Shown: positions 1,394-49,414 of the stretch, piece after piece
Layout: every line of letters begins with the position of its first letter
How positions within the stretch are numbered: position 1 is the stretch's first letter
NCBI RefSeq assembly: GCF_964204645.1
Contig: NC_134027.1
Span: forward strand, 18,252,560-18,316,559
Source of the DNA: Tubulanus polymorphus
Taxonomy: Eukaryota; Animalia; Nemertea
DNA length: 64,000 nt
Reading direction: 5' to 3'
Made by a program: the position numbers and the translations under genes
Notes under the pieces: generated by a model
Databases searched by the model: none
Told to the model about the DNA's origin: nothing
The model's input: the letters and a program-made list of their open reading frames with translations, nothing else

Positions 1394-1791
1394 AGTAATA
1401 GGGATAATAGGCTTTCAGATCAAAGGTCGAAGGGTCGAGCTCGTAAAAAAATGAAAATAACAATAATTTACAGTTAAATTAGTCGCGCACTCTCCTAATT
1501 CAACTGTAAATTATTATTATTTTCATTTTTTACTCACTCGCCCCTTCAACCTTTAACCTGAAAGCCTATTATCCCTATTACTATTAAAATAATCATATAC
1601 ATGAATAACATTTAAATTGACAGATTATTCAATATAAAAGTGTAAGCTCTTATAGAATAGATATATAGATATATTTTAAACATTATTTCAATATTCATAT
1701 TTGTATGAGTTAGATTTTTAAACATTAAAAGTGTTAGTAAAGTGTGATTGAAATAATTCATATTTAAATCATTGAACTTCTAAAATCAATT
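1394..1791 (+). repeat. Left TIR; the outer 189 nt (1394-1582) form an imperfect hairpin
   Basis: Reverse complement of 16964-17356. Internally AGTAATAGGGATAATAGGCTTTCAG pairs with CTGAAAGCCTATTATCCCTATTACT. Confidence 0.95.
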
Positions 1792-1814
1792 TAGTAAAAA
1801 AATATGTATAATAA

Positions 1815-2468
1815 ATAGAATCAGAACAACTACAAACTATCAATATTACAAATAACACTGGTGTCATAAACATATACTACAAGAAGTGTTCTAAATGTGA
1901 AATAGATAAATTAGCTATAACAGAATTTAATAAGCGTAAGATTAGCAAAGATGGTTTTCAATATTGCTGTAAAACTTGTACTAAACTATATACCAAACAA
2001 TATCGAGAAGATAATAGAGAAGCTTTTAATGATTATATGACAGAATATATGAGAGAAAGATATCAAACAGATCTTAATTTTAGATTAAAACAATGTTTAA
2101 GATCTAGATTAACACAATTATTCAACAAAGAAACGCATTCAGAAACACTATCTAATTTATTGGGTTGTTCAGATGAATTTTTCATATCATGGATAATATA
2201 TCAATTCGACGATAAAATGAATATAGATAATTATGGTGAATACTTTCATATTGATCACGTGTTGCCGATTTCTAAATTTAACATGAATGATGAATACAAT
2301 AAAAAACTTATTTGGAATTGGAAGAATTTAAGACCTTTAGAAAAGAAGGAAAATATAATTGAATCTAACAAACTAGATTTACAGTTATATTTAGATCAAT
2401 TGGATAAAGCAAAGACATTTGTTGAATTATGGAATTCAACACATAATGAAAAATACGTTGAAGCTTAA
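1815..2468 (+). CDS. NCLDV-type HNH-like endonuclease with N-terminal CxxC pairs; start codon mutated ATG>ATA at 1815 (ORF track starts at 2037)
   Basis: HIDHVLPISKF...NLRPLEKKENI. Frame is open from 1815 and aligns with the ATG-initiated homologue at 31254-31976 (MESKQPQIINITNN). Confidence 0.75.
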   Translation: MESEQLQTINITNNTGVINIYYKKCSKCEIDKLAITEFNKRKISKDGFQYCCKTCTKLYTKQYREDNREAFNDYMTEYMRERYQTDLNFRLKQCLRSRLTQLFNKETHSETLSNLLGCSDEFFISWIIYQFDDKMNIDNYGEYFHIDHVLPISKFNMNDEYNKKLIWNWKNLRPLEKKENIIESNKLDLQLYLDQLDKAKTFVELWNSTHNEKYVEA

Positions 2469-2850
2469 ACGCTTAGAAAACCGGTTACTCTCGATCTATG
2501 TCAAACCGCCTATATTTAATTGTATTAGGTTGCTTACTACTGAAACATATGTTGCCAAATATATCTTGTTTTCAATTCTAAAGAATTAATTAACTTCATC
2601 ACAAAGGAACATCTGTTACAATCCAGGCAAATATGTGCAGAAATAATTAGTTTGGTCGAACGTGCGCCACGTCGGCAGTTAGAAATCAAATTTCACATAC
2701 ATAGTACGTATTGGATATTCTCTCTCAAAACACAGTTTACAGTTCTAAATCTAAATGTAAGTACCGTTTTTTGTAGTTATTATGAAGTAGGGAAACCTTT
2801 AAACATATTTAAGTACAGTAATTCATTTTCACGACATCTTTTAGATTAAA

Positions 2851-3126
2851 ATGGAATACAGAGATCGACCAGAAATTCCAAGTCAACCATCGGAAGAGGA
2901 TCCAGAAACGATGGATAGTGAAATACAGGAATCAATAGAAATGGAGGATGAAACTCTCGTAATTGACGAACAAACTTCACAAAAATTACAAGAACATTTG
3001 GATTATCATCAAGAAATGGTGAAAATTCTGAGTGATGTAATACATAATAAACAATTACCGCGCGAACTACAATTACCAAAATTACCAGCAACGCGACTTA
3101 AATTGCTGTTGGGAATCGAAAACTAA
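2851..3126 (+). CDS. Acidic hypothetical protein (91 aa)
   Basis: Open ORF starting in TAAAATG. A degenerate, possibly related region lies near 32200-32410. Confidence 0.55.
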   Translation: MEYRDRPEIPSQPSEEDPETMDSEIQESIEMEDETLVIDEQTSQKLQEHLDYHQEMVKILSDVIHNKQLPRELQLPKLPATRLKLLLGIEN

Positions 3127-3130
3127 GAAA

Positions 3131-3310
3131 ATGAGTGGAGATATCAGTGCCGGTTTTGAAAGAAAACTGAGAAGAGTAGGTAGATTAATAAAATATGAAA
3201 AATTCAAAATATTAGGATTAGCATTTAGTGAAGTAGTCAGATATTTACCAGAAATTGAAGAAATGATTGGAAACAATCCAGTAATTAAAGAATTCTTGAC
3301 AAAATTATAA
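3131..3310 (+). CDS. Small hypothetical protein (59 aa, MSGDISAGF...KEFLTKL)
   Basis: Open frame read manually, immediately downstream of the 91-aa ORF. Confidence 0.4.
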   Translation: MSGDISAGFERKLRRVGRLIKYEKFKILGLAFSEVVRYLPEIEEMIGNNPVIKEFLTKL

Positions 3311-3383
3311 ATTATAACACTGAAGGTCTTTGTAATATAGATATCAAAAATGTAATCTCGATTGTATATATCTGTTTTAATAT

Positions 3384-3587
3384 TGTATTGATTACTGTTA
3401 ACTGTGTATTGCGCAATAACCGGTCCGATTGGACCGCTTTTCTATTGTTCTCCATTGTTCTATTATTGATCGTTGTTAACGGCGGCGGTTGTTCTGTATT
3501 GATTGTTTACTGTTAACTAAGTATTGCGCAATAACCGGTCCGATTGAACCGCTTTTCTATTGTTCTCCATTGTTTTATTATCGATCG
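3384..3587. repeat. Two direct copies of a ~90-bp unit about 112 bp apart
   Basis: GTATTGCGCAATAACCGGTCCGATT(G/A)..CCGCTTTTCTATTGTTCTCCATTG occurs twice. Confidence 0.8.
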
Positions 3588-3997
3588 CTAAAATTTGTAT
3601 AATAAATATATGTGTTTATGAAATAGTAATTCCACCAGTCGTTTCTTTGAATTTATTTTGAGTTTGAGGATTTATTATCGAGGATCCGAAATGACTTATC
3701 TGGACAGTTATAATTACTGCTCCTAATAGATAGACAATAGTAGTGAGATATTAAATCCTAATTTAAATAAAATATAATAAAAAAACAATAACTTCAACTG
3801 CTAGTGAATTCTATTATATTTTTAATATTTTCTTTTCAAAAAGAGAATACTTTATATTTTGAATAGATTCAAATAGAAATTTTTTAAATTCAAATAGCTA
3901 GTATCAGTAGTCAATACTAAAATTCTTTAACTTTAACTATCTAGTATCATTTGAAGAATACTTATAATATTTTTCTTATTAAATTTCTCTAATATCA

Positions 3998-4591
3998 ATG
4001 TCAAAGAAATCGAGTAAGAATAGTATTGATATTGAAAAGACATTAGATGATTTGGGTATAAGTGATAATAAAGATACTGTTGTAACTAATTGTGCTCAAG
4101 TTAATTGTAATATAGATTATGAATACTATTTATATTGTAAACACCATCTTGAATTATTAATTGCTGGTGGAAAATCTAAAGAGTTTTTAACTAAGATAAT
4201 TACTTTTCAAGAATTAGATGCTATGAAACCCGTAAAAAAATATTTTAAGATTTATGAAGAAGCTAGATTAGCTAGAATAAATGATTCTATTTCAGATGGT
4301 ATTGTCAAATGTTATTCAAAATTATGTAACCAGTTAATACCAATTAATGATGAAAATGAATTATATAGTGATTTGAAAAATGACTATTTAGTTATGACTG
4401 AATTACAAAAATGGGTTGGTTATGCTTCATTTCAATTAGGATCGGTTATGAAATTAATTTCTACTGGCGTAATAACATTTTCGAACATCAAGCCTATGGA
4501 ATATAAATCAGGTAAGAACGAAACAGATGTACTACAACCAAACGTCGAAACAGAAAATGAATCAGAACAATTAACTAAAATAAATGAGTGA
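3998..4591 (+). CDS. Conserved hypothetical protein of the element (197 aa)
   Basis: Intact ORF. Close homologue at 30385-30990 (-). Confidence 0.75.
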   Translation: MSKKSSKNSIDIEKTLDDLGISDNKDTVVTNCAQVNCNIDYEYYLYCKHHLELLIAGGKSKEFLTKIITFQELDAMKPVKKYFKIYEEARLARINDSISDGIVKCYSKLCNQLIPINDENELYSDLKNDYLVMTELQKWVGYASFQLGSVMKLISTGVITFSNIKPMEYKSGKNETDVLQPNVETENESEQLTKINE

Positions 4592-4952
4592 TAGCGTTAA
4601 GAAAAAGGTTAGATCTGAAAAACAAATTAAACGGGCAAGAGAATTAGGTAAAAGATCTTCAGAATATAAAAATGCTAAGAAAAAGAAATTAACTGATATA
4701 AATGAATCACAGACTTTATCTGATATTAATTCAAATAATAATCCATCTGATTCTTCTAATGCTGGAAGTAATTATAAATTATATATTACAATTGGATTAG
4801 TAACAGTTATTATATTATCTGGTGTAATATATAATTCAAAATTCAAATCTGATGATAAAGATGATTCCAATGACAATAAACCTATCATACCAGAAAATAA
4901 ATCAAATCATAAAGTCATTGAAACTAAATCTAAATTATTATTAATCGATTAA
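4584..4952 (+). CDS. Single-TM protein with a basic N-terminus (122 aa)
   Basis: Hydrophobic segment LYITIGLVTVIILSGVIY. Homologue at 30038-30388. TAAATG start. Confidence 0.75.
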   Translation: MSDSVKKKVRSEKQIKRARELGKRSSEYKNAKKKKLTDINESQTLSDINSNNNPSDSSNAGSNYKLYITIGLVTVIILSGVIYNSKFKSDDKDDSNDNKPIIPENKSNHKVIETKSKLLLID

Positions 4953-4958
4953 AATGAG

Positions 4959-5566
4959 ATGAAAAAAGAACAATATTTAAGAGAGTTATATTATAACCCA
5001 GAAAGTGAAGTATCATATTCTAACGTTTCAGAATTATGGAATAAAATTAAATCTGATAATGAAAATGGTGATATAAAATATAGTGAATTGAAATCATGGT
5101 TACAAAATCAACCAACATATCAAATCCACAAGAAAATGGATAAAACTTATTTAACAAGAAAAGTTATGGTTTCATATATCGATCAACAATGGCAAGCAGA
5201 TTTAATTGACATGAAGAACTTAGAGGAATACAACAAAGGATATTTCTGTATATTAAATGTTATAGACATATTCAGTAGATACGCATGGTCAATTCCAATC
5301 AAAAATAAAACTGGAATAGAAGTAACAAATGCTTTTAAATCTATATTTAAAGAAGCTATTCCAGATAAGATACAATTTGATGAAGGTAAGGAATTTTATA
5401 ACAAACATTTCAAAAAACTATTATCTGATAACGATGTAGACTATTTTTCAACACACTCAGATAAAAAAAGCATCTATTATAGAAAGATTTAATAAAACAT
5501 TGAAAACTAGAATGTGGAAATATTTTACTGCTAATGAAACATACAAATATATCGATGTATAAGATG
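4959..5566 (+). pseudogene. int: Retroviral-like (rve) DDE integrase, frameshifted and truncated
   Basis: QWQADLIDM, DIFSRYAW and FDEGKEFYN, then a frameshift to IIERFNKTLKTRMWKYF. Similarity to copy C ends near 5566. Confidence 0.92.
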
Positions 5567-5601
5567 CATAGAATCTTTATTATCAATATGCTTATCTGTA
5601 A

Positions 5602-6348
5602 CTATATCACCATGTCGGCGCCATTTTCATTATTATCTTTATTAGTGTTTGCTCCTAATATTTCATTTACAATGTTTGATACTAATTTAATAGCATCGGT
5701 TAAATCTAATTCATCTTTATTAGGTGTTGCTAATAATAAATCTTCATGTAATTCTTTACCATTTACTTTTTGATTTGAAACAAACTTTGTAACATATCTA
5801 AATGGGTGTTCTATAAATTCTTTTAAACCAACACGTTCTATAACATTATTTATATGTACCCTTGTATTCATATGTTTATTCCAATTTGATGGAACGTTTG
5901 AATATCCACCTTTACAATATCCACAATAATTTCTATTTTCACTAACATTTAATATTATTTCATTATTTGATGTAGAAGGTATTACATTATTAGATGTAGA
6001 AGGTATTACATTATTAGATGTAGAGGGTATTACATTATTAGATGTAGAAGGTATTACATTATTAGATGTAGTAGGTATTACATTATTAGATGTAGTAGGT
6101 ATTACATTATTAGATGTAGAAGGTATTACATTATTAGATGTAGAAGGTATTACATTATTATCAATTACATTACTTAAATTATCAACAACACCACTTTTAT
6201 TATTATCGATTTCTATTAGTTTAGTTTTATAAATTTTGAAAATAGGATCAAATATCAAAGCTATATTACAAGGTATTACATAATATAAACCATCATTATT
6301 TTCATGTGTATCGATGTATGGAATATGTTTATATACTTTACCTCCCAT
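5602..6348 (-). CDS. Variable-slot protein with an 8-aa repeat (NNVIPSTS)x8 and a C2H2-like Zn finger
   Basis: 24-bp tandem repeat at ~5965-6160; CGYC...WNKHMNTRVH; TAAATG start. Confidence 0.7.
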   Translation of the reverse strand: MGGKVYKHIPYIDTHENNDGLYYVIPCNIALIFDPIFKIYKTKLIEIDNNKSGVVDNLSNVIDNNVIPSTSNNVIPSTSNNVIPTTSNNVIPTTSNNVIPSTSNNVIPSTSNNVIPSTSNNVIPSTSNNEIILNVSENRNYCGYCKGGYSNVPSNWNKHMNTRVHINNVIERVGLKEFIEHPFRYVTKFVSNQKVNGKELHEDLLLATPNKDELDLTDAIKLVSNIVNEILGANTNKDNNENGADMVI

Positions 6349-6380
6349 TTATTATATAAATTTTAATTAAAGTTAAAATG

Positions 6381-7581
6381 TTAATACGTTACACTATTCA
6401 ATTGAGAATTTACAATATTTAATTGCGCGTCAGATATAATATAAATATGCATTTTGAAATTTAGGCTTCCTTTTTTCTTTGTCATGAATAATTGTATTCC
6501 ATCTTTAGTGTTTTTTAATTTTTTTCCAGAACCATGTAATGAATTATCCTCTGTTGTTCTAAAATCTAACCATAATGCATATTTATTGCCGGTATAATAA
6601 TCAATTTGATTAATATTACAATTTTCAGATGATTTTACTTTTTCATTCATAAAATGTTTTCTAATTTCTGGCCACTGATCTATCATTCTCATTCCTTGAC
6701 AAAATATTTTATTTGCTATTCCTTCGATAATTATTTCTACTTTTGTTATTTCAGGATTATAATACTTATCAACATTTATTGCGCCATTAGTATATGTTGT
6801 TAATATTCTCATTAATTATTTCATCATTTGCATTAATAGTTACAGTTTTAAATTTATCAATATAATCATATAATAATGAAAATCCTTGATTGTATTTAGT
6901 TTGAATTATACTTGAAATATTTTCATCAGTTACTGTATCATATTCTAAACATATATTCGATAATTTATAACTCATATCTTTATTAACGCTAGATATTACA
7001 ATTTCATTTACAGGAGCAAATGTAATTTCGAATATAACGTCTTCTTGAATTGCATATTTATATAAAGGTGCATTATTATTTATCAATTCAAAGTCTAATG
7101 GAATTTTATATTTGCTTCCATATATACCTTTTATCAATTTTTCTATAGCATTAGTTAATATTGCATTATGCGCTTCTGATCTTAATTTATTTTGGTTTTC
7201 TGATTGGATTCCTTGAAATATCATATTATTTCTGTTTTCTTTAGTTAACCATAAATCTTTATAATGCATGAATAAATTATAATCATCTAATGAGAAAACT
7301 GTTTCTGGTCCAATCTTTATAGTTAATTTTTTAATGAAATATCTTCCAACATTATCAACAACATAATTATTATTATTACCAATTACTTTTATATCGGCTG
7401 ATAAATAAATACTATTTGGAACATAAAAAGTATTTTGTGTTAATCGAGGGATTCTAACATATAAAGTTTCATCGGGATTAATATTAGAAGGGTTATGAGT
7501 AATTATATGATGTGATCTTTCTGCTTTAATAACATTAGATATTCTATGATTCTTAGAAGGATTGATATAACTCCCACTCAT
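6381..7581 (-). pseudogene. MCP: Major capsid protein (double jelly-roll inferred), split by a ~45-nt deletion near 6795
   Basis: ITHNPSNINPDETLYVRIPRL, NVGRYFIKKL, LSNICLEYD, KYALWLDFRT.EDNSLHGSG and IISDAQLNI resemble invertebrate PLV/adintovirus capsids. The copy at 49415-50658 retains the deleted FPRRSIK segment. Confidence 0.8.
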
Positions 7582-9024
7582 TTATTTAACAAAAAAATTA
7601 ATTAAAATAATTGCACTTACAACTGTAATTAAAAATAAAATAATATGTTCAGCAGCAAAGTTAATAATGTTTCCTGCAGATTTCAGTATAAAACCAACAA
7701 TTGATGCAATAATTCCTGTTAATGCTGCAGCAGATTTTTTAGATAGTTCCCATAAATATTTTGCTAATTTCTTTAAACCATCCTTAACTCTATCTTGTAT
7801 TGAATTATTATCATTCGGGGGTTTATCCGGTTTATTGGGAGTAGGAGTAGATTTCAAAGCATTTGATATTGCTAAACCAATTGTTGTAAATAACATAGTT
7901 ACAGCTGTTAGAATTGAAAGAATTGTTATTCCTTCAAACTTAAATAATAATTTTATTCTATCTTTTAGTGATATGTCAGAATTTGGTTTTAGTATTAACT
8001 CTTTAACAACAACTTTTAATCTATTAATACAATAATCATATGATTTTAACAATAATTTCATTTTTTCTTTCTGAAATTCTATGTTATATTCTAAATCATC
8101 AATTTCTTTTTCTAAATATGCATTTCTTTTTTTAAATTCAATTTCTTCAATAACTTTAAATTCTCTATCTAATTTTAATTGTTCTAATTCTTTTCTGGTG
8201 TCAAATAATTTATTTTCTAAAGGTTTAATTTTATTATATCTAATATGTTTTTCGCGCGCAATTTTATCGGCTTCATCTCGTATACTTATTATTTCTCTAA
8301 TTGTTTTTTTAGAAAACATACTTAAAGCTTCTATTTCTTGATCTGTTGAATCAAGTAATCCCTTCGGTAAAAGTTTTTCAGTTTGAACTTCAGTGTTTGA
8401 TTTAAGTTTACTAGTTTTGGAAGTTTTATTCTGTTCAGAAGTTGTTTCTGTTTCTGGATTATCTTTGATTGTTTCAAATAATTTATTAATTCTTTGTTTA
8501 ATTACTTTTTCATTTTTACCAATTAATTCTTGTGTTACATCTTCTGGTTCACTACTATTTCTTATTCTATTAATTTTAGATAGGTCTAACCTAAGCGAAG
8601 TTGATTTTGCTAATATTTTGTCTTGAATTTTATAAGAGATGTTAATATAATAATCATCTTTCAATTTATAATAATATTCACCATCTAAAAACTTTAATTC
8701 TTTTACTAAAAGTCTGGCGCCTCTATCATTTATATTATATCCAGAATCTTTAAATACACGTTGAAAATCATACATAAATTCATAATTTTCTATATTTTCT
8801 CTTTCTAAATCTGGATTTAAATTTTCAGTAGGTATTCTCGATCTAGTTCTTCTATCATATTTCTCTGTTGATGGGACTTTAGAACCACTATCTGCTAAAT
8901 TAGAATTATATGTTGTATCATTATCAATATTAGTATCAGCAGTCATATAATCATCATCGTTAGTATTGGCATCATTATTATTTCCCATGTTTTCCATTTC
9001 ATAATCTTCTCCACCTTCTGCCAT
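7582..9024 (-). CDS. 480-aa coiled-coil protein with C-terminal hydrophobic/amphipathic helices (putative virion membrane protein)
   Basis: Acidic N-terminus, long coiled coil, GITILSILTAVTMLFTTIGLAI and GIIASIVGFIL...IILFLITVVSAII. Homologue at 47978-49395. Confidence 0.8.
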   Translation of the reverse strand: MAEGGEDYEMENMGNNNDANTNDDDYMTADTNIDNDTTYNSNLADSGSKVPSTEKYDRRTRSRIPTENLNPDLERENIENYEFMYDFQRVFKDSGYNINDRGARLLVKELKFLDGEYYYKLKDDYYINISYKIQDKILAKSTSLRLDLSKINRIRNSSEPEDVTQELIGKNEKVIKQRINKLFETIKDNPETETTSEQNKTSKTSKLKSNTEVQTEKLLPKGLLDSTDQEIEALSMFSKKTIREIISIRDEADKIAREKHIRYNKIKPLENKLFDTRKELEQLKLDREFKVIEEIEFKKRNAYLEKEIDDLEYNIEFQKEKMKLLLKSYDYCINRLKVVVKELILKPNSDISLKDRIKLLFKFEGITILSILTAVTMLFTTIGLAISNALKSTPTPNKPDKPPNDNNSIQDRVKDGLKKLAKYLWELSKKSAAALTGIIASIVGFILKSAGNIINFAAEHIILFLITVVSAIILINFFVK

Positions 9025-9047
9025 TTACATAATAAAAAAATTAAAAT

Positions 9048-10340
9048 TTAAAATATAATATTCCTCCTATTACAAATTCCTATACAAGTTATAGCTAATT
9101 TAGTATTTTCATGGGATTTATTATCATCATTTAGTTTAATTATTTCATGTTGAATAATATCAGTTTTAATATTTTCTGATGTATTATAATCCGGTTTAGA
9201 ATCATTATTTAATTTAATATTCATAGTTTTAGTTTCTGTTGATTGAATATGTTTTTTATTTTTTTCACCTTCCATTAATTTTGGAGCAGTAATAATCTTT
9301 TTATTTATATCATTCAATCCAAATGAATTATTTATTGTTGCAGTTTTAATTAGATTATTATAACCAATTATATTTCCCATCTTTAATACTAAATCATTAG
9401 AAATAATAAATAGATTAGGGCCTATACAATGATTTAATCTAATATGTGATTTATCTAAATAATTTTTATATCTTACAATGTTTTCCGGAATCGATCTATT
9501 TTTATCATTATGAATTGAATCTTCAAATAATGCTTTGAATTGTTTCTGCGCATCGAATGAAGTGTTATCATTTCCAACTATTGGGGCTCTTGTTTCAACT
9601 TGCGCACCTAAAATACATATCAAATAAGTTCTAATAGATTGATTTATTCTTTGTATACCTGATTTTGTAAAACCTTCACCATTTTCTAAAATGAAATTAA
9701 CCCAACCATTATTATTATCAATTTTATAATTATGATTAGCTCCAATTCTATGCATATAATCAATTCTTTTTATTTCATACTCTTCACCAACACCTTGCAA
9801 TTTACCATGCGCTCTAAAATCGGAATTAATATTTATATTAAATTCATTACATATTTTATAAAACTTAGATAGATTAATATTATTATCCAATTCTTTAAAA
9901 TATTTAGACCCGGGTAAAGGACATTCTAATTCATTTAATATTATTCTGATTTGAAAATATGTGTGAAATCTAAATATTGTGTGAATTAATTTTAAATCAG
10001 AATACTTCAAATTTTTATCTAAGTTATTTAAATGATCATTCCAACTTATTCCACATCCTGTTGTTGCACAATAAACAGCAAAATTTAATTGATTCTGCCA
10101 ATATTTCATATTAGATTTTACTTTATATATATGGTATTCATCTCGAGTAAAAGTAACTTCATATGTATTAAATATATTTTCCATTTTAGAAATAAAAAAC
10201 TGTGATTCAGTAACATAAATTTCTAAATTAGTTAATGAATTTAAAACTACATTTTTATATGTAATATTTTTTTTAAAATCTATTGCAGGAATATTATATT
10301 TAATTGATTTATTATATTGGAAAGCTTTTAGAAACCCCAT
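9048..10340 (-). CDS. Conserved hypothetical PLV protein (430 aa)
   Basis: YWQNQLNFAVYCATTGCGIS. Homologue at 42058-43190 continuing at 47746-47940. Confidence 0.8.
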   Translation of the reverse strand: MGFLKAFQYNKSIKYNIPAIDFKKNITYKNVVLNSLTNLEIYVTESQFFISKMENIFNTYEVTFTRDEYHIYKVKSNMKYWQNQLNFAVYCATTGCGISWNDHLNNLDKNLKYSDLKLIHTIFRFHTYFQIRIILNELECPLPGSKYFKELDNNINLSKFYKICNEFNININSDFRAHGKLQGVGEEYEIKRIDYMHRIGANHNYKIDNNNGWVNFILENGEGFTKSGIQRINQSIRTYLICILGAQVETRAPIVGNDNTSFDAQKQFKALFEDSIHNDKNRSIPENIVRYKNYLDKSHIRLNHCIGPNLFIISNDLVLKMGNIIGYNNLIKTATINNSFGLNDINKKIITAPKLMEGEKNKKHIQSTETKTMNIKLNNDSKPDYNTSENIKTDIIQHEIIKLNDDNKSHENTKLAITCIGICNRRNIIF

Positions 10341-10359
10341 TTATATAATTAAAAAATTG

Positions 10360-10781
10360 ATAATTTATTAATTCTTTTTATAATTTATCCTGTTCTTCAA
10401 CTCTTATATGACCATTTAAATTTATTATATAATTTGATGTATTTTTTAATTCATTAATTTCTTTTATATTAGATTTAATTTTTTCTTTATTACTTTTAAA
10501 GTTTAATTTTGAACTTATACCAGTTAAAACACTTGAACTCAACCCTTGCACACCAATTGATATAGCTAAAGGTGTTAATGGACTGAATATTGCTAAAAAT
10601 GTTATTACAGAACTAATTGTAACTGAACCACTGAAAATAAAATATACATAATTTTACTTTTTAAATATTTTTTCTTTTTTATCTTTAAGTCACTTTCAAA
10701 TTCTAATATTAGTTTTTCTAAATATGTTTTTGATTTAGTTTTATTTATATCATGAGGAATAATATCAATATTATCATCCAT
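10360..10781 (-). pseudogene. Frameshifted protein with hydrophobic segments (~140 aa)
   Basis: MDDNIDIIPHDINK... then, in a shifted frame, SVTISSVITFLAIFSPLTPLAISIGVQG. Homologue at 41608-42040. Confidence 0.65.
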
Positions 10782-10799
10782 TTATTTAGCAAAAAATTA

Positions 10800-11222
10800 C
10801 TAATTAGTAAACTTATACGCTACAAATATAACAATAACAGTTCCGCCTAAAATCCAAATTGTTTCATATTTCTTCTGTTTATTACTTGGGGTATAATAAT
10901 CTGATATTGTAGGTTTATGTAGATGTAATTTTTCTTTATTGGTTACCGCGTTATATAAACTCATTGCATCATCAACTGATTGAAAATCTCTATGTGAAAT
11001 CTTCTGATCATATAATTCCTTGTTAATATAATCCATATAGTTTTGCCTCTTTTCTCTGTATTCTTCTGCTGCTTTATTGTATTTCTCTAATGCTAAGTTA
11101 TGTCTTTTTTGTTCTGTTAATGATCCATTTTTATCAATATGCTTAAATAAATAACCACCACCAGTAAATGCTAAAGCGTTAACAATTGCTGATCCTATAA
11201 TAGTTATAATTGCAGAAGCCAT
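10800..11222 (-). CDS. 140-aa protein with hydrophobic N- and C-termini
   Basis: MASAIITIIGSAIVNALAFTGGGYLF...EQKRHNLALEKY. Homologues at 26176 and 41166. Confidence 0.8.
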   Translation of the reverse strand: MASAIITIIGSAIVNALAFTGGGYLFKHIDKNGSLTEQKRHNLALEKYNKAAEEYREKRQNYMDYINKELYDQKISHRDFQSVDDAMSLYNAVTNKEKLHLHKPTISDYYTPSNKQKKYETIWILGGTVIVIFVAYKFTN

Positions 11223-11247
11223 TTATTTAGTAAAATAATTACACATT

Positions 11248-11412
11248 TATATGGGGGGAATATATTTTTGTTTTTCTAAATAATCAATAGTTAAATTAGA
11301 TTACACTTCCCATTTTAAATACTTTTTTTAATACCATTGAATAACCAACAGTTCCAACTGATAGTAATGCTCCATTATATAATCCAGTTATTATCCACTT
11401 ATTATCACTCAT
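11248..11412 (-). pseudogene. Small hydrophobic protein with an internal deletion
   Basis: MSDNKWIITGLYNGALLSVG... An intact 73-aa homologue is at 40920-41141. Confidence 0.7.
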
Positions 11413-11754
11413 TTATTTATCAAAAAAATTACTATCTTCAAAATATTTAGTTAACTTATTTATGATTATTTCAACATTTATTTCATTACTACTTTTATGA
11501 TTATCATATATTTTGATTAATTTGTTTTTAATATCATCAATAATTCCATCTTCATTGAATTCATAATATTCTAAAGGTGATTTAATTAAATCAATAACTT
11601 TTTTTATATTATAATTTTCTTTTTTAATCATTGATGCATTGTTAAATGATTTAATTTTTATATCAGTAATTACATCATTTCGTTTAATTCTCATTTCTTT
11701 ACCATGTTTAAAATCAAACCCAAAACATATACTCGGCCCAACAGTTATATTCAT
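11413..11754 (-). CDS. Hypothetical protein (113 aa)
   Basis: Intact ORF with TAAATG start. Homologue at 25668-25970. Confidence 0.7.
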   Translation of the reverse strand: MNITVGPSICFGFDFKHGKEMRIKRNDVITDIKIKSFNNASMIKKENYNIKKVIDLIKSPLEYYEFNEDGIIDDIKNKLIKIYDNHKSSNEINVEIIINKLTKYFEDSNFFDK

Positions 11755-11779
11755 TTATATAGTGAAAAAATTACTCTCT

Positions 11780-12512
11780 TCATCTTATAACTAATTCATA
11801 AATTACAGGGAAATTATTTAAATCAATTAAGTATCCATTATGATTTCTAATTTCTAATCTAAAATTATTAAAACGAGGAATGCATGGTTTGAAATCACAT
11901 TCTGTTAAATTATGATTTATTTGCGTTCCAAATTCTTTAACATTCTTCAATGGTAAAATGTTTAGTAAACCAGAATTACAAGTTATATCTTTAGTTGCTT
12001 CGAATGTTTTTGTAGGATCGATTAAATTGCAATAAATATAAAAGTGTGTAAAAGGCATTATATTTGGTGTAGCATCAGCATTGCGTATCCTTACATCTGG
12101 GGTTATTCCTAAAATTTTAGCTAGAAATTGATGTTGATCTTCATTACCTAATTTTATTCTTATTTTATCGGAGCTATCACTTTTAATCAGTCTTAATCCA
12201 AATCCAGCAGATGCACCCATTTTCAACCGAGCTCTTCTATTAATTTCCTGCGCTAATGTATCTAAATTATATAATCCTGGTTTAAGATAAAGATGAAACC
12301 ATTTACTTTTATTTCTATCATGAATTAAAAAGACTATGTTCAATAGTTTTATCCGATACATTGTAAAAAGAATTACATAAACTTATATTAACTAATTTGA
12401 AATCTACACAATTCTTTAATTCTCTATCTAATTGAACTAGTAAATTATGAGATTTATAATTTGTAAGTTTTCTAGAATCTACAAATATTCTGTATTCTTT
12501 TAATTCTACCAT
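11780..12512 (-). pseudogene. mCP: Minor capsid protein (penton, single jelly-roll inferred), one frameshift
   Basis: IFVDSR, NSFYNVS, LKPGLYNL, FYIYCNLID and FRLEIRNHNGYLIDLNNFPVIYELVI follow the Polinton penton pattern. Confidence 0.8.
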
Positions 12513-12530
12513 TTATTTTACATATTTTCT

Positions 12531-12884
12531 TATTCGAAATCTATTTCATGGTGCCCTTTTTCATTCTTACCTTTGTATACAAAAATAGAAATCACCAGAA
12601 CATAATTCTTCTAAGTCTTCACTTGATAATCTATGAAATCTATCCGGTAAATATGTTCTGAATTTATATTTATTTCCTTTTAATCCTTCATATTCTAAGT
12701 GTATAACTAATTTATCTCCATATTTGTTAGTAACTGTGTCAATATGTGTAATTAGATATTTCTTATGGATTATTAATTCTTTTAACTTCTTAAATTTATA
12801 ATCTACTGATTTGACATTTGAAGTATCTTTTATTCTATCTAGAAATGATTTGTTGTTCTCACTGTGCGCTTGTTTACTCTCCAT
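12531..12884 (-). CDS. Small Polinton protein, possibly an OB-fold ssDNA-binding protein; 3' frameshift
   Basis: VTNKYGDKLVIHL...TYLPDRF. Adjacent to pPolB. Homologue at 20470-20800. The fold assignment is inference. Confidence 0.55.
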
Positions 12885-12913
12885 TTATAATACATATTTT
12901 TATTAAAATTTGA

Positions 12914-15900
12914 TTAACACGTTAGAATTCTTTTCATTATCTCGTTCTCTTTTGTTTCTTCTCTTTTAAATTTTAAGTATTCATCTAAATTACAACCTAA
13001 AGCAACTGTATGAATTCCATCATCTAAAATATATCTTTTATCATCAAATGGGTTTAGACTTATCTTTTCAATTAATTCAATAAACATTTCATGATCTTCA
13101 GATCTTAAACATCTCATCTTATGTTTTCTAACTTCTTCATTGAATATACAATTGTAATGTAATCTTTGAAATGGATATTCTTTTCTACTACACTTTTGGT
13201 TATTCCTTTTAACTTTTTAGCTTCATGTTCTTTAGTTTTATATGAATACATTTGAGATCTAATACCGATGAACTCAATCATTTCTTCACCACCTAATTCA
13301 TCTTTGAATTTACCGGGAACTTTTTTATTATCATTGCTAAATAATTCATGATCTTTAGGATAATTACTAAAATCAAAATGATGTTTTAATGTTTTTAAAT
13401 CATCAGTTATGTTATCAGTTTTTATCTTTAATATGTAAGAATCTGTATCAAAGTATAGAATTTCTATATGTTTTTCTCCAAAAAGTGGTTGTAATACATT
13501 ATAATAGAATTCATACATTAGTAATTTTGATAATTCTAAAACTAAAGCGCCAACATAGATTGGTTTATTAAATTTCATTGATGTTCTTCTCATCTTAACT
13601 GCAGCTAAATTTTCTTCAAATATTCTGTTACCAATGAACTTAGGATATGTTTGTAAATGTATAATTCTTTTACCATTACTAACTAACTCAATATCATTTC
13701 TATTTCTAATATTTTCACAAGTCTTACCGTAGAATGCATTATTCATTAACTTGAAGAAATCTTTTTCGAAATCAGTTTTAGCTTCAGTTCTCTGTTTGGT
13801 GTTAAAATCTATATATTTTTCTAACCACTTAGATTGACTAAATGAAATATATCTATGTACTTTTTTTAGAACCATTCCTTGATTCAAATAAAACTTTAAC
13901 ATTCTATAATGTACTACATAATTATATTTATCTTCTTGAGTTACCATTAACTTTTCTGTATGAATATGATTTTCGGGTTTAATTCTTTTTTGATAATTTG
14001 ATAATTCTTCATGAGTTACAGTTTTATGTTCGGGACAGTATGCTAGATTTCTAGATTTAAATTTAATATGTTCAGGATATTCTAAATCTACAACAAAGAA
14101 CTAACCAGTATCTGAATCATCTGCAATATCTAGAATTCTTTTCTTCCAATAAAATTTATCATTATTTTCATTCTGTAAAACTTCAGTTAATTCAGATACT
14201 CCATAAGGTTGTGGTTCCATCATTGCCCAACCATACAAATTATTTGCATCTATATATAATAACTTATATCCAGGGTTATCGTTTACATTGAAATATCTAC
14301 CTAATACACCTGAAACTCCTCCTCTTATAGATTTTTCAAATAATAATAATTGATCTATATTTGTTAACAAATCCATTTTTATATCTGTAAATTTTAATCC
14401 ACAATCCCATGTTAAACCTGGTGATGAATAACAATGACAAGGATCAATATTGAAATATTTTAGGTTTACATCTCTAAACCTTTCGAATATATCCGATAAT
14501 AATAATACATCTGATTTTAAATATAAATCTACTAATTGCCCATGATTTTCTATTTTGAAATGATTCCAAATATTCAATGTTCTATTATATACTTCATCTC
14601 TAACATATTCATGTTTTAATTCATCATAGAATTGTTCTTTCAATAATTCAGTTATGTTAAAATCATTATGATTTTTACAGAAAGAATATGGAATTGCTCC
14701 TTTATATCTCATTAATTGAAAATCATCATTATTTGGATAGTGTTGTTTTAATATTTTTAATTCATCATCCACTAATGATTTTGATAAGTTATCTAATGAA
14801 CTATTTAAAAATCTATATGAATCTATAAATCTTAGGCAACCAAATTGGAATGAAATATAATTCTCAGATGTTTTAGCTAACATTCTAAATTTATAAGTTG
14901 GTATTTTATCTTTTGATCTATTTGAATTTAATCTTTCTATTTCATTATTAATTTCTTCTATTTTATGACATAACTGTTTGATGAATAAATGTGCATCATA
15001 TCCTGATAGATTATGAAATATAACTTGTAACAAAATTAATTTTCTTAGCTTGTAAGTTACAATTCTCATGCGCGGCGCCTCTAAACTTTCCATTCAAATG
15101 ATCATGGTCTCTTACTTTTTTATCGTTATAATTAAATATCTTTTCACAATAATAACATTTATCTGCAAACTCAAATGCTTCTTTATCTTCTTCTGTCATT
15201 ATAATTTCTATATTTGTATTCAATAATTTACTAAATCTTATTTCATATTCAATTAATAAGTCACAAAAATGATTGATAACATTTTCATTTCTATAATCAT
15301 AATATTCACTTTCAATTAGTTCTGGGTAATCAGATTTTATATATAACCCGAAAGCTGCGGCTGATTGATGAATCTTTTTAATTGTATTTGTTATTGGCGG
15401 TTCATCTGAAAAATCATTTTCATTAGAATTTAATTTCTTTCCTTTATAATATATTTCTTTTCTATCTTGATCAGTTAATTCTTTATTTAATGATTCAAAA
15501 TCTCCATATATTACAAATGGTACTTTATTTTTGTAATCATATTTTTTTAATTCTATTATTTTATCCTTTTCATTTGGTAAAACTAATTTACAATAATCAT
15601 GATTTTCACATAATTGTTTATGATTTAATAATGTACTTTCATTACTGAATTTATGTAAACATTTTCTACATAGATATATTTTATTATGGTGATCACTTTC
15701 TGTTCTAAAGAATAAATCTATTTGTTTAATCCACATATAATGATTCTCATAATATAATATCTATAACATCATTTGAATCATAATCTTTTGATAGATATAA
15801 AGGTTCTAATGTATAATGTTTTATGTTGTTACCTTTTGTATTTGGTAATTTGATTAAATCAAATACATTTATCTTTATATTATTATCTCTTTCTATTTTT

Positions 15901-16941
15901 GGGATGTTTTTAATTATAACAGGATACTTATCTATCTTATAATTATTTTCAAATGGTTTATAATGAGTTAATCTACAAATATTATAAGTTGCAGGATGTA
16001 AACAACTTATTATAGCCCATAGAAAACATTTATCATCAGAATTTTGTACATTTATAACAGCATTAGTTTTAAATGGTAGTTTAATATAACAATAATTCAA
16101 TATCTGGTTCTTTATAATATGATACATTATTTTCATCAATTGGTTTTGATTTAGTTAACTTATTATATTTTGTGTTATAAACATGTAAAGTCATAAATAT
16201 TATTTCATCAAATATTAACCAGATCCTTCAAAATATTTCTCTTCTATTTTAGTTTTTACTTCATTATAACATTTATCTAATTTATCATCTATATGTTGTT
16301 TAGATATAATATGTTGTGAATGAGAATTTATATTATATATTGGTATATCTTCAGATTTTGTGAATTTAACTTTTGATGAAATACTTATTTTAGGATATTC
16401 AACATCAGTTATTATTTTTATTATTTCTTTCATATTTTCTAAATGTTTTTTTATTTTCTTCTAATGTTTTTCCTTTATGAAATTTAAACTCGATAGCTGC
16501 TGGGCCAATATCACTTTTAAATGCTTCGGTTATCTCTATATCTTTTTTATTATCAAATGAATTAATATATTTTCTTACATATTCCATGTATGGTCTTTTA
16601 TTGTTTAATTTATTTTTTATGCTTTTAATTGTCTTCTGTTTCTTATCATTATCTTTATCAAAATAATCTTAACCTAAAATATCATTATTCTTATTTCTAA
16701 TATGACTTTTAGATTTTAAATGTTCTTTATAATATCTTTTATCACTGAATGATTGATTACATGTATCACATTTGTATGTTTCTTTTTCATTCTTTAATTC
16801 ATCTAATTTAGTTTCTAATATATCATCTTTATATTCTAGTTTCAATTTATTCTCTAAATGTGTTTTAGTTTTATTGTGTCTTGCTTTTTTGGATTTATCT
16901 ATATTGATATTACATGTTGGGCAGTACTTATTTGCTTCCAT
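12914..16941 (-). pseudogene. polB: Protein-primed family B DNA polymerase with N-terminal Zn fingers and an EndoVII-like insert; multiple frameshifts
   Basis: NSDDKCFLWAI, YGDFES (ExoI), VRDHDHLNGKFRGAAHENCN, FHNLSGYDAH (ExoII), YLKSDVLLL (ExoIII), YIDANNLYGWAM (A), KLMNNAFYGKT (B), YFDTDS (C) and SLNPFDDKRY. Confidence 0.95.
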
Positions 16942-16963
16942 TTTAATACTAATTTTTTTTTTT

Positions 16964-17356
16964 AATTGATTTTAGAAGTTCAATGATTTATATCATGTAT
17001 TATTTCAATCACACTTTACTTACACTTTTAATGTTGAAAAATCTAACTCATACAAATATGAATATTGAAATAATGTTGTAAATATATCTATATATCTATT
17101 CTATAAGAGCTTACACTTTTATATTGAATAACATTTAAATGTTATTCATGTATATGATTATTTTAAGAGTAATAGGGATAATAGGCTTTCAGGTTAAAGG
17201 TTGAAGGGGCGAGTGAGTAAAAAATGAAAATAACAATAATTTACAGTTGAATTAGGAGTGTGCGCGACTAATTCAACTGTAAATTATTGTTATTTTCATT
17301 TTTTTACGAGCTCGACCGTTCGACCTTTGATCTGAAAGCCTATTATCCCTATTACT
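16964..17356 (-). repeat. Right TIR; terminal hairpin at 17168-17356
   Basis: Reverse complement of the left TIR, with about 4 mismatches in the 189-nt hairpin part. Confidence 0.95.
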
Positions 17357-25667: not shown

Positions 25668-26668
25668 AGTATATGTATTGGGTTTGATTTTAAACATGGT
25701 AAAGAAATGAGAATTAAACTAAATGATGTAATTACTGATATTAAAAGTAAATCATTTAACAATGCATCAATGATTAATAAAGAAAATTATAATATAGAAA
25801 AAGTAATTGATTTAATTAAAACACCTTTAGAATATTATGAATTAAATCAAGATGGAATTATCGATGATATTAAAGATATATTATCTAAAATATATGATAA
25901 TCATAAAAGTAGTAATGAAATAAATGTTGAAATAATTATAACTAAGATAACTAAATATTTTGAAGATGGAGCATTATTATCGGTTGGAACCGTTGGTTAT
26001 TCAATGGTATTTAAAAAAAGTATTTAAAATGGGAAGTGTTAATGTTGATAGATTTGATATAAATGATATTTTAAAATTAACATTAGCAGTTACTTTATCT
26101 AATTTAACTATTGATAATTTGGAAAAACAAAAATATATTCCTCCTATATAAATGCATAATTTTTTTGTTAAATAAATGGCTTCTGCAATTATAACTATTG
26201 TAGGATCGGCAATAGTTAATTTACTGGTAATTATTGCTGGTAATTTATTTAAGCATATTGATAAAAATGGGTCATTATCAGAACAAAAAAGACATAACTT
26301 AGCATTAGAAAAATATAATAAACCAGCAGAAGAATATAGAGAAAAGAGACGAAATTACATGGATTACATCAATAAAGAATTATATGATAAGAAGATTTCA
26401 CATCGAGATTTTCAATCAGTTGATGAAGCAATGAGTTCATATAACGCAGTAACAAATAAAGAAAAATTACATCTATACAAACCTAAATTATCAGATTATT
26501 ATAGAATACTTAAGATGGAATACAATTATTCATGAAAAAGAAAAAAGGAAGCTTAAATTTTAAAATGCACATTTACATCATATCTGACGCGCAATAAAAT
26601 ATTGTAAATTCTCAATTAAATAGTGTTATGTATTAGATATTTAATTTTAATAAAACTTTTTATAATAA

Positions 26669-28123: not shown

Positions 28124-28699
28124 TCATTTTATAAATTTATATTCATAGGGAAATTGAAGCCTCAGAAGTAATTTTGAACCTTTATTATTCTTTAATTTAT
28201 TCATATATTCATCATGTAATTCAGTAGGTATAATTTGATATTCTTCCAATGATTGTTGCATAGATTTTCTATCTTTGTTATAAAATAAAACTAAAAATCT
28301 TATATTCTCCCTAAAATCTTTAACAATTGAATTATATTTTTGATTTAAAACCCATGTCGTTATCCCAAAATGTCTCCCAGAGAAAGCTAGATAACATAAC
28401 TCACTCTCTCTAACTTTTGAATCATGTAAATTTGCGCAATCATCTATAATGAATAATGTATTTGAACCTTTATAAATATCAATTGCTATTTTAATACAAT
28501 TATCTAAATTTTCTCTTACTGTTTTAGGATCTAATATAATAAACTTTTTTAACTTAACTATATCTCTATTATCTGTTTTATTCATTTCATAAATGGGGCA
28601 GAATAATATTATATTATCAAAATGATTCTTATAAATAGTTTCTAACAAATCTAATATGATATGTGTTTTACCACAATTGGTTACTCCAGTAACTAACAT
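28124..28699 (-). CDS. A32/FtsK-HerA family genome packaging ATPase
   Basis: Walker A GVTNCGKT, Walker B FIIDDC and GRHFGITTWVLNQ. Confidence 0.92.
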   Translation of the reverse strand: MLVTGVTNCGKTHIILDLLETIYKNHFDNIILFCPIYEMNKTDNRDIVKLKKFIILDPKTVRENLDNCIKIAIDIYKGSNTLFIIDDCANLHDSKVRESELCYLAFSGRHFGITTWVLNQKYNSIVKDFRENIRFLVLFYNKDRKSMQQSLEEYQIIPTELHDEYMNKLKNNKGSKLLLRLQFPYEYKFIK

Positions 28700-28719
28700 A
28701 TTATGCGGTTCAAATATAA

Positions 28720-30031
28720 ATAAATCTTTATTCTTTTGATTTTACTAGATAAAATCCATTCATTAAATTTATTCATCATACCCTTTATATTTCACCAAAG
28801 AATACTTTTTTCCTTTAAGAGTTTTTGTTTTCAATACTTTTTCTATTTTGTATTCTATTTCATCTGGATTTGGTACAAGTGATAATTCTTGTTCATAGAA
28901 ATAACCTAATATTTCTTCATCTTTTAGATCTTCTAATTTATAAACAAAAGGTTAAGTTAATATTATCTCTTTAATCTTGAATATTTCTTCAGTAAAATTT
29001 GGAGTATAACCTTTATAAAATGTTTTTCGATATTTAGATATTCTAACATGTTGTCCTATTTTAAATTTAGGTTCTCCGAAATCATGTGTAACAAATGCTC
29101 CATATAAATTATTCCAAACTATTTCTGAATTATCTTCTTTTCTAGCTTGTATAGGTTTCAAATTTATAGAACTATGTTTTGTGTCGGTATTCCGACACGC
29201 TTCACGGGTAATCGGTTTTCGCGCCTTTTTCAGTGGGCGTTTACTGTACGTTTTGTGATTCAGTCTTACCTCTCTTGTCAAGCTGCACGCACGCACGCTG
29301 TGAGCAGTAAATTATGCTGTACATAGAGTAAATAAAGTTCTGTTATCAAACACCAGCCTAACTCGTCTATATTCTGAGGACTAAGGAGACATGTTTAGAA
29401 TTATTATAACCTTTCACTAAATCATCTAACACATCGATATATTCATATGTTTCATTAGCAGTAAAATATTTCCACATTCTAGTTTTTAATGTTTTATTAA
29501 ATCTTTCTATAATAGATGCTTTTTTATCTGAATGTGTTGAAAAATATTCTACACCGATATCAGATAATAGTTTTTTAAAATGTTTGTTATAAAATTCCTT
29601 ACCTTCATCAAATTGTATCTTACCTGGAATAGCTTCTTTATTATATTATAATATTGATTTAAAAGCATTTGTAACTTCTATACCAGTCTTATTTTTGATT
29701 GGAATTGACCATGCGTATCTACTGAATATGTCTATAACATTTAATATCCAGAAATATCCTTTGTTGTGTTCTTCTAAGTTCTTCATGTCAATTAAATCAG
29801 CTTGCCATTGTTGATCGATATATGAAACCATAACTTTTCTCGTTAAATAAGTTTTATCCATTTTCTTATGGATTTGATATGTTGGTTGATTTTGTAACCA
29901 TAATTTTAATTCACTATATTTTATATTTTCATTATCAGATTTAATTTTATCCCATAATTCCGAAACACCAGAATATGATACTTCACTTTCTGGGTTATAA
30001 TATAAATCTCTTAAATATGTTCTTTTTTCAT
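28720..30031 (-). pseudogene. int: rve integrase with C-terminal chromodomain, interrupted by a solo LTR
   Basis: QWQADLIDM, IIERFNKTLK, KFKIGQHVRISK..FYKGYTPNFTEEIF and LVKYKGY. Confidence 0.9.
29180..29391 (+). mobile_element. Solo LTR (212 bp)
   Basis: TG...CA ends, 5-bp TSD TGTTT (29175-29179 and 29392-29396), internal AATAAA. Removal restores the integrase frame YNNSKHSSI. Confidence 0.85.
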
Positions 30032-30388: not shown

Positions 30389-30990
30389 TTATTTTAGTTA
30401 ATTTTTGTTCCGATTCATTTTCTGTTTCACCGTGTGGGGGTCGTACGGCACCATCTGTTTCGTTCTTACCTGATTTGTATTCTATAGGTTTGATATTCGA
30501 AAATGTTATGACACCAGTAGAAATTAATGTCATAACCGATCCTAATTGGAATGAAGCGTATCAAACCCATTTTTGTAATTCAGTCATAACTAAGTAGTCA
30601 TTTTTTAAATCACTATATAATTTATTTTCAACATCAATTGGTATAATCCGTTTACATAACTTAGAGTAACATTTTATAATACCATCACTTATAGAGTCAT
30701 TTATTCTAGCTAATCTTGACTCTTCATAAATCTTAAAATATTTTATTACTTTATCTGGTTTCATAGAGTCTAATTCTTGAAAAGTTATTATGTTCCCCAA
30801 GAAATCCTTAGATTTCCCGCCGGCAATTAGTAATTCCAGATGGTGCTTACAATATAAGTAGTATTCATAATCAATATTACAATCAATATTATTTTTAATT
30901 TTGGTTGGAATATCCTTATTATCACTAATGCACAAATCATCTAATGTTTTTTTTCAATATCGGTATTATTCTTACTCGATTTCTTTGACA
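30385..30990 (-). pseudogene. Homologue of the 197-aa protein, frameshifted with a premature stop
   Basis: Shares CNIDYEYYLYCKHHLELLIAGGKSK with 3998-4591. Confidence 0.75.
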
Positions 30991-31253
30991 TTTATATTAG
31001 AGAAAAAAGCGAAAAAAAATATTATAAGTATTATAAAATGATACTAATAACTCTTTAGGTTAATACTTAATTGACTAGGTTAGTTAAAAATAAAGAATTT
31101 TTATTCAAACCCATTCAAAATCTATTTAATCTAGTGTTAACAAGAATTGCAAAAGGAAATATTAAAAATATAATAGAAATAAGGATAGTTTAAAGTTGAT
31201 AGTTGATAGTTATTGTTTTTTTTTATTATATTTTATTTGAATTCTATTATTCA

Positions 31254-40919: not shown

Positions 40920-41141
40920 ATGAGTGATAATAAGTGGATAATAACTGGATTATATAATGGTGCCTTACTATCAGTGGGAACTGTTGGTTATTCAATGGTA
41001 TTAAAAAAAGTATTTAAAATGGGAAGTGTTAATGTTGATAGATTTGATATAAATGATATTTTAAAATTAACGTTAGCAGTAACTTTATCTAATTTAACAA
41101 TTGATTATTTGGAAAAACAAAAATATATTCCTCCTATATGA
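40920..41141 (+). CDS. Small hydrophobic protein (73 aa), intact
   Basis: Conserved in three copies; T-tract plus TAAATG start. Confidence 0.75.
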   Translation: MSDNKWIITGLYNGALLSVGTVGYSMVLKKVFKMGSVNVDRFDINDILKLTLAVTLSNLTIDYLEKQKYIPPI

Positions 41142-43470: not shown

Positions 43471-43554
43471 CAGTAATCCGAAATATACCAGACTGAGTAA
43501 ATTTCCAAAACGACCTTAACACACTGTTCGACCAAAAAACTTAATGTTCCGACA

Positions 43555-46500: not shown

Positions 46501-46640
46501 TGGGGGGCGACAAAACCAAAATAATGCATTGTCGCTGGCGATAAAACCAAAGTTATGAATTGTCGTGGGCGATAAAACCAAAATAATGAATTGTCGGGGC
46601 GACAAAACCAAAATAATGAATTGTCGCGGGTGACAAAATC
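43555..46640. repeat. 31-bp satellite (consensus ATTGTCGCGGGCGA(T/C)AAAACCAAAATAATGA), roughly 60 units, split by an insertion at 43822-45080
   Basis: Directly visible tandem array. Confidence 0.95.
43822..45080. mobile_element. Non-autonomous Helentron/DINE-1-like element with an internal ~154-bp tandem repeat (x4)
   Basis: Starts ACTAGGGGTCCAGGGACACC; has a GGAC microsatellite and the terminal stem-loop GGGACTTAAGTCCC; sits in an A-run. A shorter copy is at 51238-51803. Confidence 0.65.
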
Positions 46641-49395: not shown

Positions 49396-49414
49396 TTAAT
49401 TTTTTGTTAAATAA

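Follow-up and report, generated by a model that had tools for sequence, protein, structure and literature searches.

The late promoters of vaccinia virus place the word TAAAT(G) over the start codon, with a conserved T at the 10th nucleotide (nt) upstream of TAAAT (position -13), and the intermediate promoters combine TAAA with an AT-rich patch further upstream, as set out in PMC11980589. The poxviral polymerase is described as reading TAAA directly (PMC12917281), polymerase slippage at TAAA gives poly(A) leaders (PMC6211774), and TAAATG is also annotated at genes of salmon gill poxvirus (PMC4542343). Here we report that the same word, in most cases with a T-rich patch roughly one helical turn further up, heads nearly all genes of a Polinton-type element, called copy A, in a 64,000-nt stretch of eukaryotic DNA (the window) and of a lineage of its relatives, and we argue that it probably serves as a promoter for the polymerase of a helper virus.

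Small elements with helper-type promoter motifs are known. The genes of mavirus share the late promoter of Cafeteria roenbergensis virus (CroV), and in the proposed model a helper factor enters the nucleus to activate the integrated copy (10.1101/068312). Gezel-14T shares an early promoter motif with Phaeocystis globosa virus (PgV) (10.1101/2022.07.28.501842), the pacmanvirus initiator motif is given as TATATA (PMC11788076) and the one used by African swine fever virus (ASFV) as TATA (PMC7163114). Poxvirus satellites are so far represented by one report of co-purified genomes, those of the Polinton-like viruses (PLVs) AHEV_PLV1/2, CBEV_PLV1 and Ca_PLV1 in entomopoxvirus occlusion bodies, which were proposed to be poxvirus hyperparasites (PMC11296320). 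That report has no promoter analysis: the text holds no match for 'promoter', 'TAAAT' or 'motif', and the supplement no 'promoter' and two unrelated occurrences of TAAATG. We found no report of pox-type promoters in Polintons in a literature search outside which lay subscription journals and bioRxiv supplements.

Results

TAAATG gene starts in the window

Copy A, itself decayed, belongs to a Polinton family that is present in high copy number in a eukaryote genome. A first-pass annotation had described seven starts in it that consist of a T tract, a spacer of 6-7 nt and TAAATG, and all seven are present on the minus strand, with ATGs at 7581, 9024, 10340, 10781, 11222, 11412 and 11754 and spacers between T tract and TAAAT of 6, 6, 7, 6, 6, 6 and 7 nt, respectively. 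The site at 11222 has T4 only, and the other six sites of 7500-11800 match the strict T5 pattern. The six sites at which the motif was said to be retained in other copies are likewise all present, and the upstream frame in copy F does end 19 nt before the ATG of the major capsid protein (MCP) gene (Table 1). Further TAAATG gene starts lie at 4584, 6348, 12512, 12884, 30991, 31976 and 58295, and eroded sites at 3998 and 47978.

Enrichment over shuffled background had been set beforehand as one test of the motif, and enrichment was found. The pattern TTTTTN{5,8}TAAATG has 21 overlapping matches in the window against a mean of 2.7 in shuffled sequence, with 0/100 shuffles reaching 21. When distinct sites were counted against dinucleotide shuffles in 500-bp blocks, there were 13 in the whole window (1.98 expected; 0/100 shuffles), 6 in element A (0.79 expected; 0/300) and 6 in 7500-11800 (0.25 expected; 0/300).

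The motif across the capsid family

Metagenome loci were collected with a capsid profile; the best 80 of 247 confirmed were taken, which with copy A made 81 loci (designated L and a number). We kept the 369 starts at which the N-terminus aligned with a homolog in another locus. TAAATG was found at 57 of 70 such starts in 18 loci, copy A included, and at none of the 299 starts in the other 63 loci; nine of these negative loci have a G+C content of 0.36 or less and contribute 0/28. The two groups differ also at position -3, which is a purine at 233/299 starts in the negative loci and T at 61/70 in the motif loci. By the Kozak rule a T at -3 runs against the usual scanning context. ATGs preceded by TAA make up only 6.7% of all ATGs in the 18 motif loci. 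Beyond the genes of copy A, TAAATG also stands at the start of genes for an ATPase, an integrase (L001) and a deoxynucleoside kinase (L003), of HNH-like genes and of unknown genes.

The motif persists at a G+C content of 0.40-0.44 (L010, L011), and it is retained among MCPs 34-84% identical, over a G+C range of 0.20-0.44, in contigs with intact genes, which argues for selection in active lineages. On a quick tree of 60 capsids, from which capsids shorter than 330 amino acids (aa) were left out except for the window's fragment, the motif label is clustered, with 2 changes against 14.2 in shuffles (0/500). L014, which has an out-of-frame TAAATG 4 nt upstream, is placed among the positive loci. 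We conclude that the motif is real, specific to a lineage and under selection.

On our reading, the 13 starts in positive loci that lack TAAATG are mostly accounted for: seven correspond to methionines inside genes that are broken or cut, one has eroded in copy A yet is intact at 30991, and two have TAAAAT nearby. Two more (L010, L073) keep TAAAT with the ATG right after it, which fits an initiator. The last is taken up in the Discussion. Other sub-lineages seem to have recurring start words of their own, TATA-ATG (L047, L048) and TAAAA-ATG or AAAA-ATG (L026, L038, L042, L067, L072), which perhaps reflect other helpers or host contexts.

The T patch and gene classes

Among 66 TAAATG starts the frequency of T peaks at -12 (87%) and -13 (74%), and at the 38 virion-block starts it reaches 92% and 89%, respectively. 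A T4 tract is present at 25/38 virion-block starts versus 7/24 others (Fisher p 0.009, uncorrected, the grouping being by synteny) and at 15/145 TAAATG words that are not starts. Within the window, T occupies -12 at 23 of 25 starts versus 38 of 112 other TAAATG words, and a matrix of positions -20 to -4 ranks 16 real gene starts top among the window's 137 TAAATG words; the matrix was trained on 56 metagenome starts that exclude the window and contain close orthologs. Both sequence elements of a poxvirus late promoter are thus found, TAAAT(G) over the start codon and, in a T-rich patch, a T about 10 nt upstream of TAAAT, which bears out the vaccinia late layout that the first-pass annotation had proposed.

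The accompanying claim that structural genes share the motif held in part, as the virion block is enriched for the T tract whereas TAAATG itself heads nearly all genes of the lineage. Virion-block starts are T-rich and other starts A-rich, a division that may echo late versus intermediate promoters of poxviruses. An A-rich start subclass, AAAATATGT-N3-4-TAAAT, recurs at window positions 12512, 12884, 20452, 20800 and about 1800 and at L003:565. Sequencing reads show joints that link 1798 with 12893 on opposite strands.

Structure and genes of the element

The terminal inverted repeats (TIRs) of copy A are about 440 bp each and 93% identical to each other, and a 6-bp target duplication, GAAATC, flanks the element (1388-1393 and 17357-17362). 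The other Polinton/Maverick hallmarks are a protein-primed family B polymerase (pPolB) and an rve integrase, both found as broken genes in copy A, and a double-jelly-roll MCP with an A32-type packaging ATPase, the latter absent from copy A and present in other copies in the window. The remainder of the window holds fragments of additional copies, and every copy in the window is decayed. A separate DNA run (X5) that carries the same species label has 63,688 of its 12.9 million reads on the region, and the repeat landscape indicates that the carrier of this high-copy family is probably an animal. A 189-bp terminal palindrome (stem of about 88 bp, 12-nt loop, z -18) stands at 1394-1582, 17168-17356 and 37482-37670, with identical mismatches at all three ends.

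For the MCP 79 database relatives were found, the closest of which are 72-77% identical and 414-415 aa long. The predicted fold of one relative, P0001, is a double jelly roll (pLDDT 87.5; Foldseek E 1e-18 versus MCPs of the nucleocytoplasmic large DNA virus type), and a weak Capsid_N match (E 0.005) was also obtained. On these predictions the MCP is the only gene product of copy A identified as structural. The model of the 430-aa protein gave no match at E <= 0.001 in a fold search, nor did the protein match Pfam or PDB, and no relatives of it or of the MCP were found in a database of viral contigs or one of genome contigs. The product of the gene starting at 12512 (254 aa in L003) is possibly penton-like by resemblance; Pfam, PDB and fold searches gave no match. 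No adenoviral-type maturation protease was matched by Pfam among 22 + 22 proteins scanned. As in virophages, no RNA polymerase of its own was found: none of the ORFs (open reading frames) scanned belongs to an RNA polymerase family, and no gene in copy A or L003 is large enough. The 248-aa gene contains 24-bp tandem repeats (window 5956-6160) that encode SNNVIPST, and its homologs have different repeats. In L003, a TAAATG-type member, the gene at 10340-10981 has a T-tract start and encodes a deoxynucleoside kinase (PF01712, E 1.7e-31). With this kinase as query, a search found three homologs that are close and, at 37%, a match in a viral contig that has one TAAATG start, but no helper.

Long hairpins of differing sequence stand at the convergent junction after the ATPase gene (window 55812-55915 and 56029-56144; L001:3746-3822; L004:3182-3252; L003:9199-9314). 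They have z values of -4 to -16, are absent from 3/6 junctions tested in relatives, and are possibly bidirectional terminators or another cis element.

Around the element, ORFs for YqaJ-like recombinases lie in the flanks (806-1321 and 25148-25585) and a tandem array with units of about 31 bp occupies 43550-43825 and 45079-46641. A SWIM-finger ORF (17449-18138, minus strand) adjoins the right TIR on the outside and has a TAAATG start without a T patch; this TAAATG is probably a stop in a decayed host transposon gene that reads so by chance.

Table 1 Features of copy A and of other copies of the element in the window.
Feature	Position	Strand	Remarks
Polinton-type element, copy A	1394..17356	.	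Decayed, about 16 kb; TIRs, target duplication, rve, pPolB
Left TIR	1394..1833	+	Initial 189 bp (1394-1582) an imperfect palindrome, fold z -18
122-aa gene start, A-rich TAAATG	4564..4586	+	Within end of upstream ORF
rve integrase, truncated	4959..5492	+	PF00665 E 1.6e-9
248-aa gene start, A/T-rich TAAATG	6346..6368	-	Gene family seen only in TAAATG-type loci
MCP gene	6381..7581	-	Split near 6800 into ORFs of 264 aa and 143 aa; 414-419 aa in intact relatives
MCP start, T7-6nt-TAAATG	7579..7599	-	TAA doubles as stop of 480-aa ORF in copy A
480-aa gene, family-conserved	7582..9024	-	C-terminus hydrophobic
480-aa gene start, T7-6nt-TAAATG	9022..9042	-	
430-aa conserved gene	9048..10340	-	Model mostly helical, without structural match
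430-aa gene start, T6-7nt-TAAATG	10338..10358	-	
Broken-gene start, T6-6nt-TAAATG	10779..10798	-	58-aa ORF in copy A, 144 aa in L003
140-aa gene start, T4-6nt-TAAATG	11220..11240	-	Hydrophobic N-terminus
Small-gene start, T7-6nt-TAAATG	11410..11430	-	38-aa ORF, 73 aa in copy at 40920; TAA is stop of 113-aa ORF
113-aa gene start, T6-7nt-TAAATG	11752..11772	-	
Broken-gene start, A-rich TAAATG	12510..12532	-	254 aa in L003
105-aa gene start, A-rich TAAATG	12882..12904	-	
pPolB region, in pieces	12914..16941	-	PF03175 E 2.7e-13
Right TIR	16924..17356	-	Same terminal palindrome as left TIR, at 17168-17356
140-aa gene start, another copy	26158..26178	+	Motif retained; ATG 26176
A32-type packaging ATPase, another copy	28124..28741	-	Also 56167-56586; family member PF04665 E 4.6e-11
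197-aa family gene start, another copy, T-tract TAAATG	30989..31010	-	Copy A equivalent TCAATG at 3998
Four retained motifs in one copy	40902..42060	+	ATGs 40920, 41166, 41608, 42058
MCP start, copy F	49397..49417	+	ATG 49415; upstream frame ends 49395, 19-nt gap

Discussion

The reading we favor, and consider probable, is that a helper virus whose initiator is of the pox type transcribes the lineage, which would make it a virophage-like satellite. The T patch and TAAATG would form a compact promoter for the RNA polymerase that a co-infecting large DNA virus would supply. The proposed events are: (i) the helper polymerase would start within TAAA and, by analogy with vaccinia, slip on the three template Ts, (ii) slippage would yield A(n)AUG messages, in which the AUG immediately follows an untemplated poly(A) leader, and (iii) the T at -3 would therefore never enter the mRNA. 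Initiation in TAAA with slippage is thus proposed as the reason why T is fixed at -3, why divergent promoters are so small and why most genes use the motif. For the virion-block genes, the T patch at -12/-13 would serve as a late upstream element, and the A-rich versions (ATPase, 248-aa, 122-aa and penton-like genes) would be intermediate-type promoters.

We are less sure of a true poxvirus as the helper, as against some other large DNA virus, than of a viral helper as such, and lean somewhat away from a true poxvirus. Only tentatively do we put forward the fuller scenario, in which an integrating Polinton branch, probably one found in animals, moved the starts of all its genes from host RNA polymerase II to poxvirus intermediate and late promoters and became an endogenous virophage of a pox-type virus.

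Several points weigh against a helper with a pox-type initiator. An exact-motif scan of viral contigs gave eight loci with 0-3 TAAATG starts each, none with TAAATG at most of its starts, and so no helper was found. TAAA is reported to be common outside vaccinia promoters too (PMC12917281), and the motif of the window is short and composed of A and T only. The T peak at -12 is one base from the vaccinia -13. AATAAATG is present at 33/66 starts, where it overlaps the poly(A) signal AATAAA, and TATAAATG at 21/66, where it overlaps the ASFV TATA initiator. The division into positive and negative loci was made on the TAAATG statistic itself, the independent facts being the bimodality and the clustering on the tree; near-copies and orthologs (L001/L002) inflate all counts, and close relatives are among the loci on which the matrix was trained. 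The tree was built by a quick procedure, L073 has a long branch, and L077 and L078 are joined at SH-aLRT 81. One intact start, that of the small gene of L011, is truly without the motif. Moreover, TAAAA-ATG is common in the AT-rich negative loci (27/49 with TAAA close to the ATG), which are therefore not a clean control for the host polymerase; this word may represent a Kozak context rich in A or a different initiator. The long hairpins found at a convergent junction recall termination in Mimiviridae rather than in poxviruses. The frequency of AATAAA in coding DNA (observed/expected 0.99 versus 1.00) is uninformative on cytoplasmic transcription, and neither AATAAA nor splice-like words separate the motif and non-motif groups. 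Depletion of T5NT in coding DNA (observed/expected 0.47) was rejected as a signal, since T5N[ACG] (0.57), TNT5 (0.50) and A7 (0.37) are also low. Among the eight loci of the motif scan, L084, a 298-kb viral contig, has TAAATG at 3/12 ORFs in 6 kb, one of them with the full T tract.

The main rival, which we consider unlikely, is that host RNA polymerase II reads a core promoter or initiator and makes nearly leaderless mRNAs with very short leaders, perhaps with an element-encoded activator that acts at the T patch, the pox likeness being convergence. The element does integrate in the nucleus, as its integrase and target duplication indicate, it is high-copy, no helper is known, and pyrimidine-purine initiators are common. 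However, the 63 related loci have variable starts with a purine at -3, the 66 TAAATG starts show no TATA-like peak near -30, and a 2-nt leader is poor for scanning. Back-to-back divergent ATGs are 14-30 nt apart in L001, L007-L009, L015, L046, L077 and L078 (in L007, L015 and L078 the opposite gene is a putative one, cut off by the contig end), and those 14-19 nt apart would leave little space for polymerase II complexes.

A signal at the level of translation or of the 3' end is decidedly improbable. It could be an in-frame stop abutting the ATG, which acts by termination-reinitiation or blocks N-terminal extension, or an upstream AATAAA fused to the next start. By construction TAA is in frame with the ATG, and in copy A it is the actual upstream stop at 7581 and 11412. 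Of all 66 starts, though, only three use the upstream gene's stop in this way; 37 follow a gap, 6 overlap the upstream gene, 9 are divergent and have no same-strand upstream gene, and 11 have no upstream gene in the contig. The first-pass annotation was therefore right that stop-start coupling does not explain the motif. TAG or TGA do not substitute for TAA and the fixed T peak at -12/-13 would go unexplained. The AATAAATG form favors the 3'-end version, but half of the starts lack AATAAA, so the poly(A) signal is not the general cause.

Very improbable, too, is a relic, in which an ancestor depended on a helper or took its promoters and the family is now a nuclear transposon whose motif is no longer read by a viral polymerase. 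The decay of all copies in the window and the erosion at 3998 and 47978 would suit such a history, whereas the retention of the motif among divergent MCPs in contigs with intact genes speaks against it. Chance in A+T-rich DNA is already refuted despite the element's G+C content of about 24%, as 0/300 local shuffles reach the count and equally AT-rich relatives have 0/28.

If the fuller scenario is true, the branch would constitute a mavirus-like inducible system in an animal genome, and TAAATG usage would sort autonomous from helper-dependent Polintons and point to undiscovered poxvirus hosts. The near all-or-none switch of start signal in one capsid family is a cheap and testable marker. Should short upstream fragments be active in the well-studied vaccinia transcription system, a Polinton lineage would be wired to a pox-type helper. 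The host genome might then contain a reservoir, antiviral or parasitic, that is inherited, and pox-like viruses would be expected in hosts from which none is known.

Comparison with known systems

The likeness to poxvirus late and intermediate promoters lies in TAAATG on the start codon, with one class having a T about 10 nt upstream of TAAAT and the other being A-rich. The differences are that the motif stands here in a 16-kb integrating element that uses it on most genes with a T peak at -12, and that this element, unlike poxviruses, has no RNA polymerase family among the ORFs scanned. ASFV resembles the proposed arrangement in its start-site initiator, short AT-rich leaders and slippage, as far as these are described, and differs in that its initiator is TATA with AU extensions, not TAAATG. 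The yeast virus-like linear plasmids pGKL are pPolB-type linear elements that are not known to have a capsid and that supply an RNA polymerase and a capping enzyme of their own. Their likeness is a TAAAN initiator reported to give poly(A) leaders by slippage (PMC6211774).

The PLVs associated with entomopoxviruses are described as having an adenoviral-type protease and no rve integrase (PMC11296320), whereas copy A has rve. Halocafeteria virophages and PLVs, for the most part ones that lack pPolB, are reported to carry terminal palindromes, whereas the window element has both. Mavirus and CroV, Sputnik-Zamilon and Mimiviridae (PMC11464507), Gezel-14T and PgV, and the pacmanvirus transpoviron (PMC11788076) all offer, in the accounts cited, a small element with a helper-type promoter motif, and mavirus further resembles copy A in its rve, its pPolB (PMC11296320) and an endogenous form reactivated by a helper. 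A pox-type word in a Polinton would be a new form of the promoter mimicry known from virophages: the virophage and transpoviron systems have protist hosts and Imitervirales or Asfuvirales motifs, whereas the Polinton lineage joins a pox-type word to a Polinton-type capsid family.

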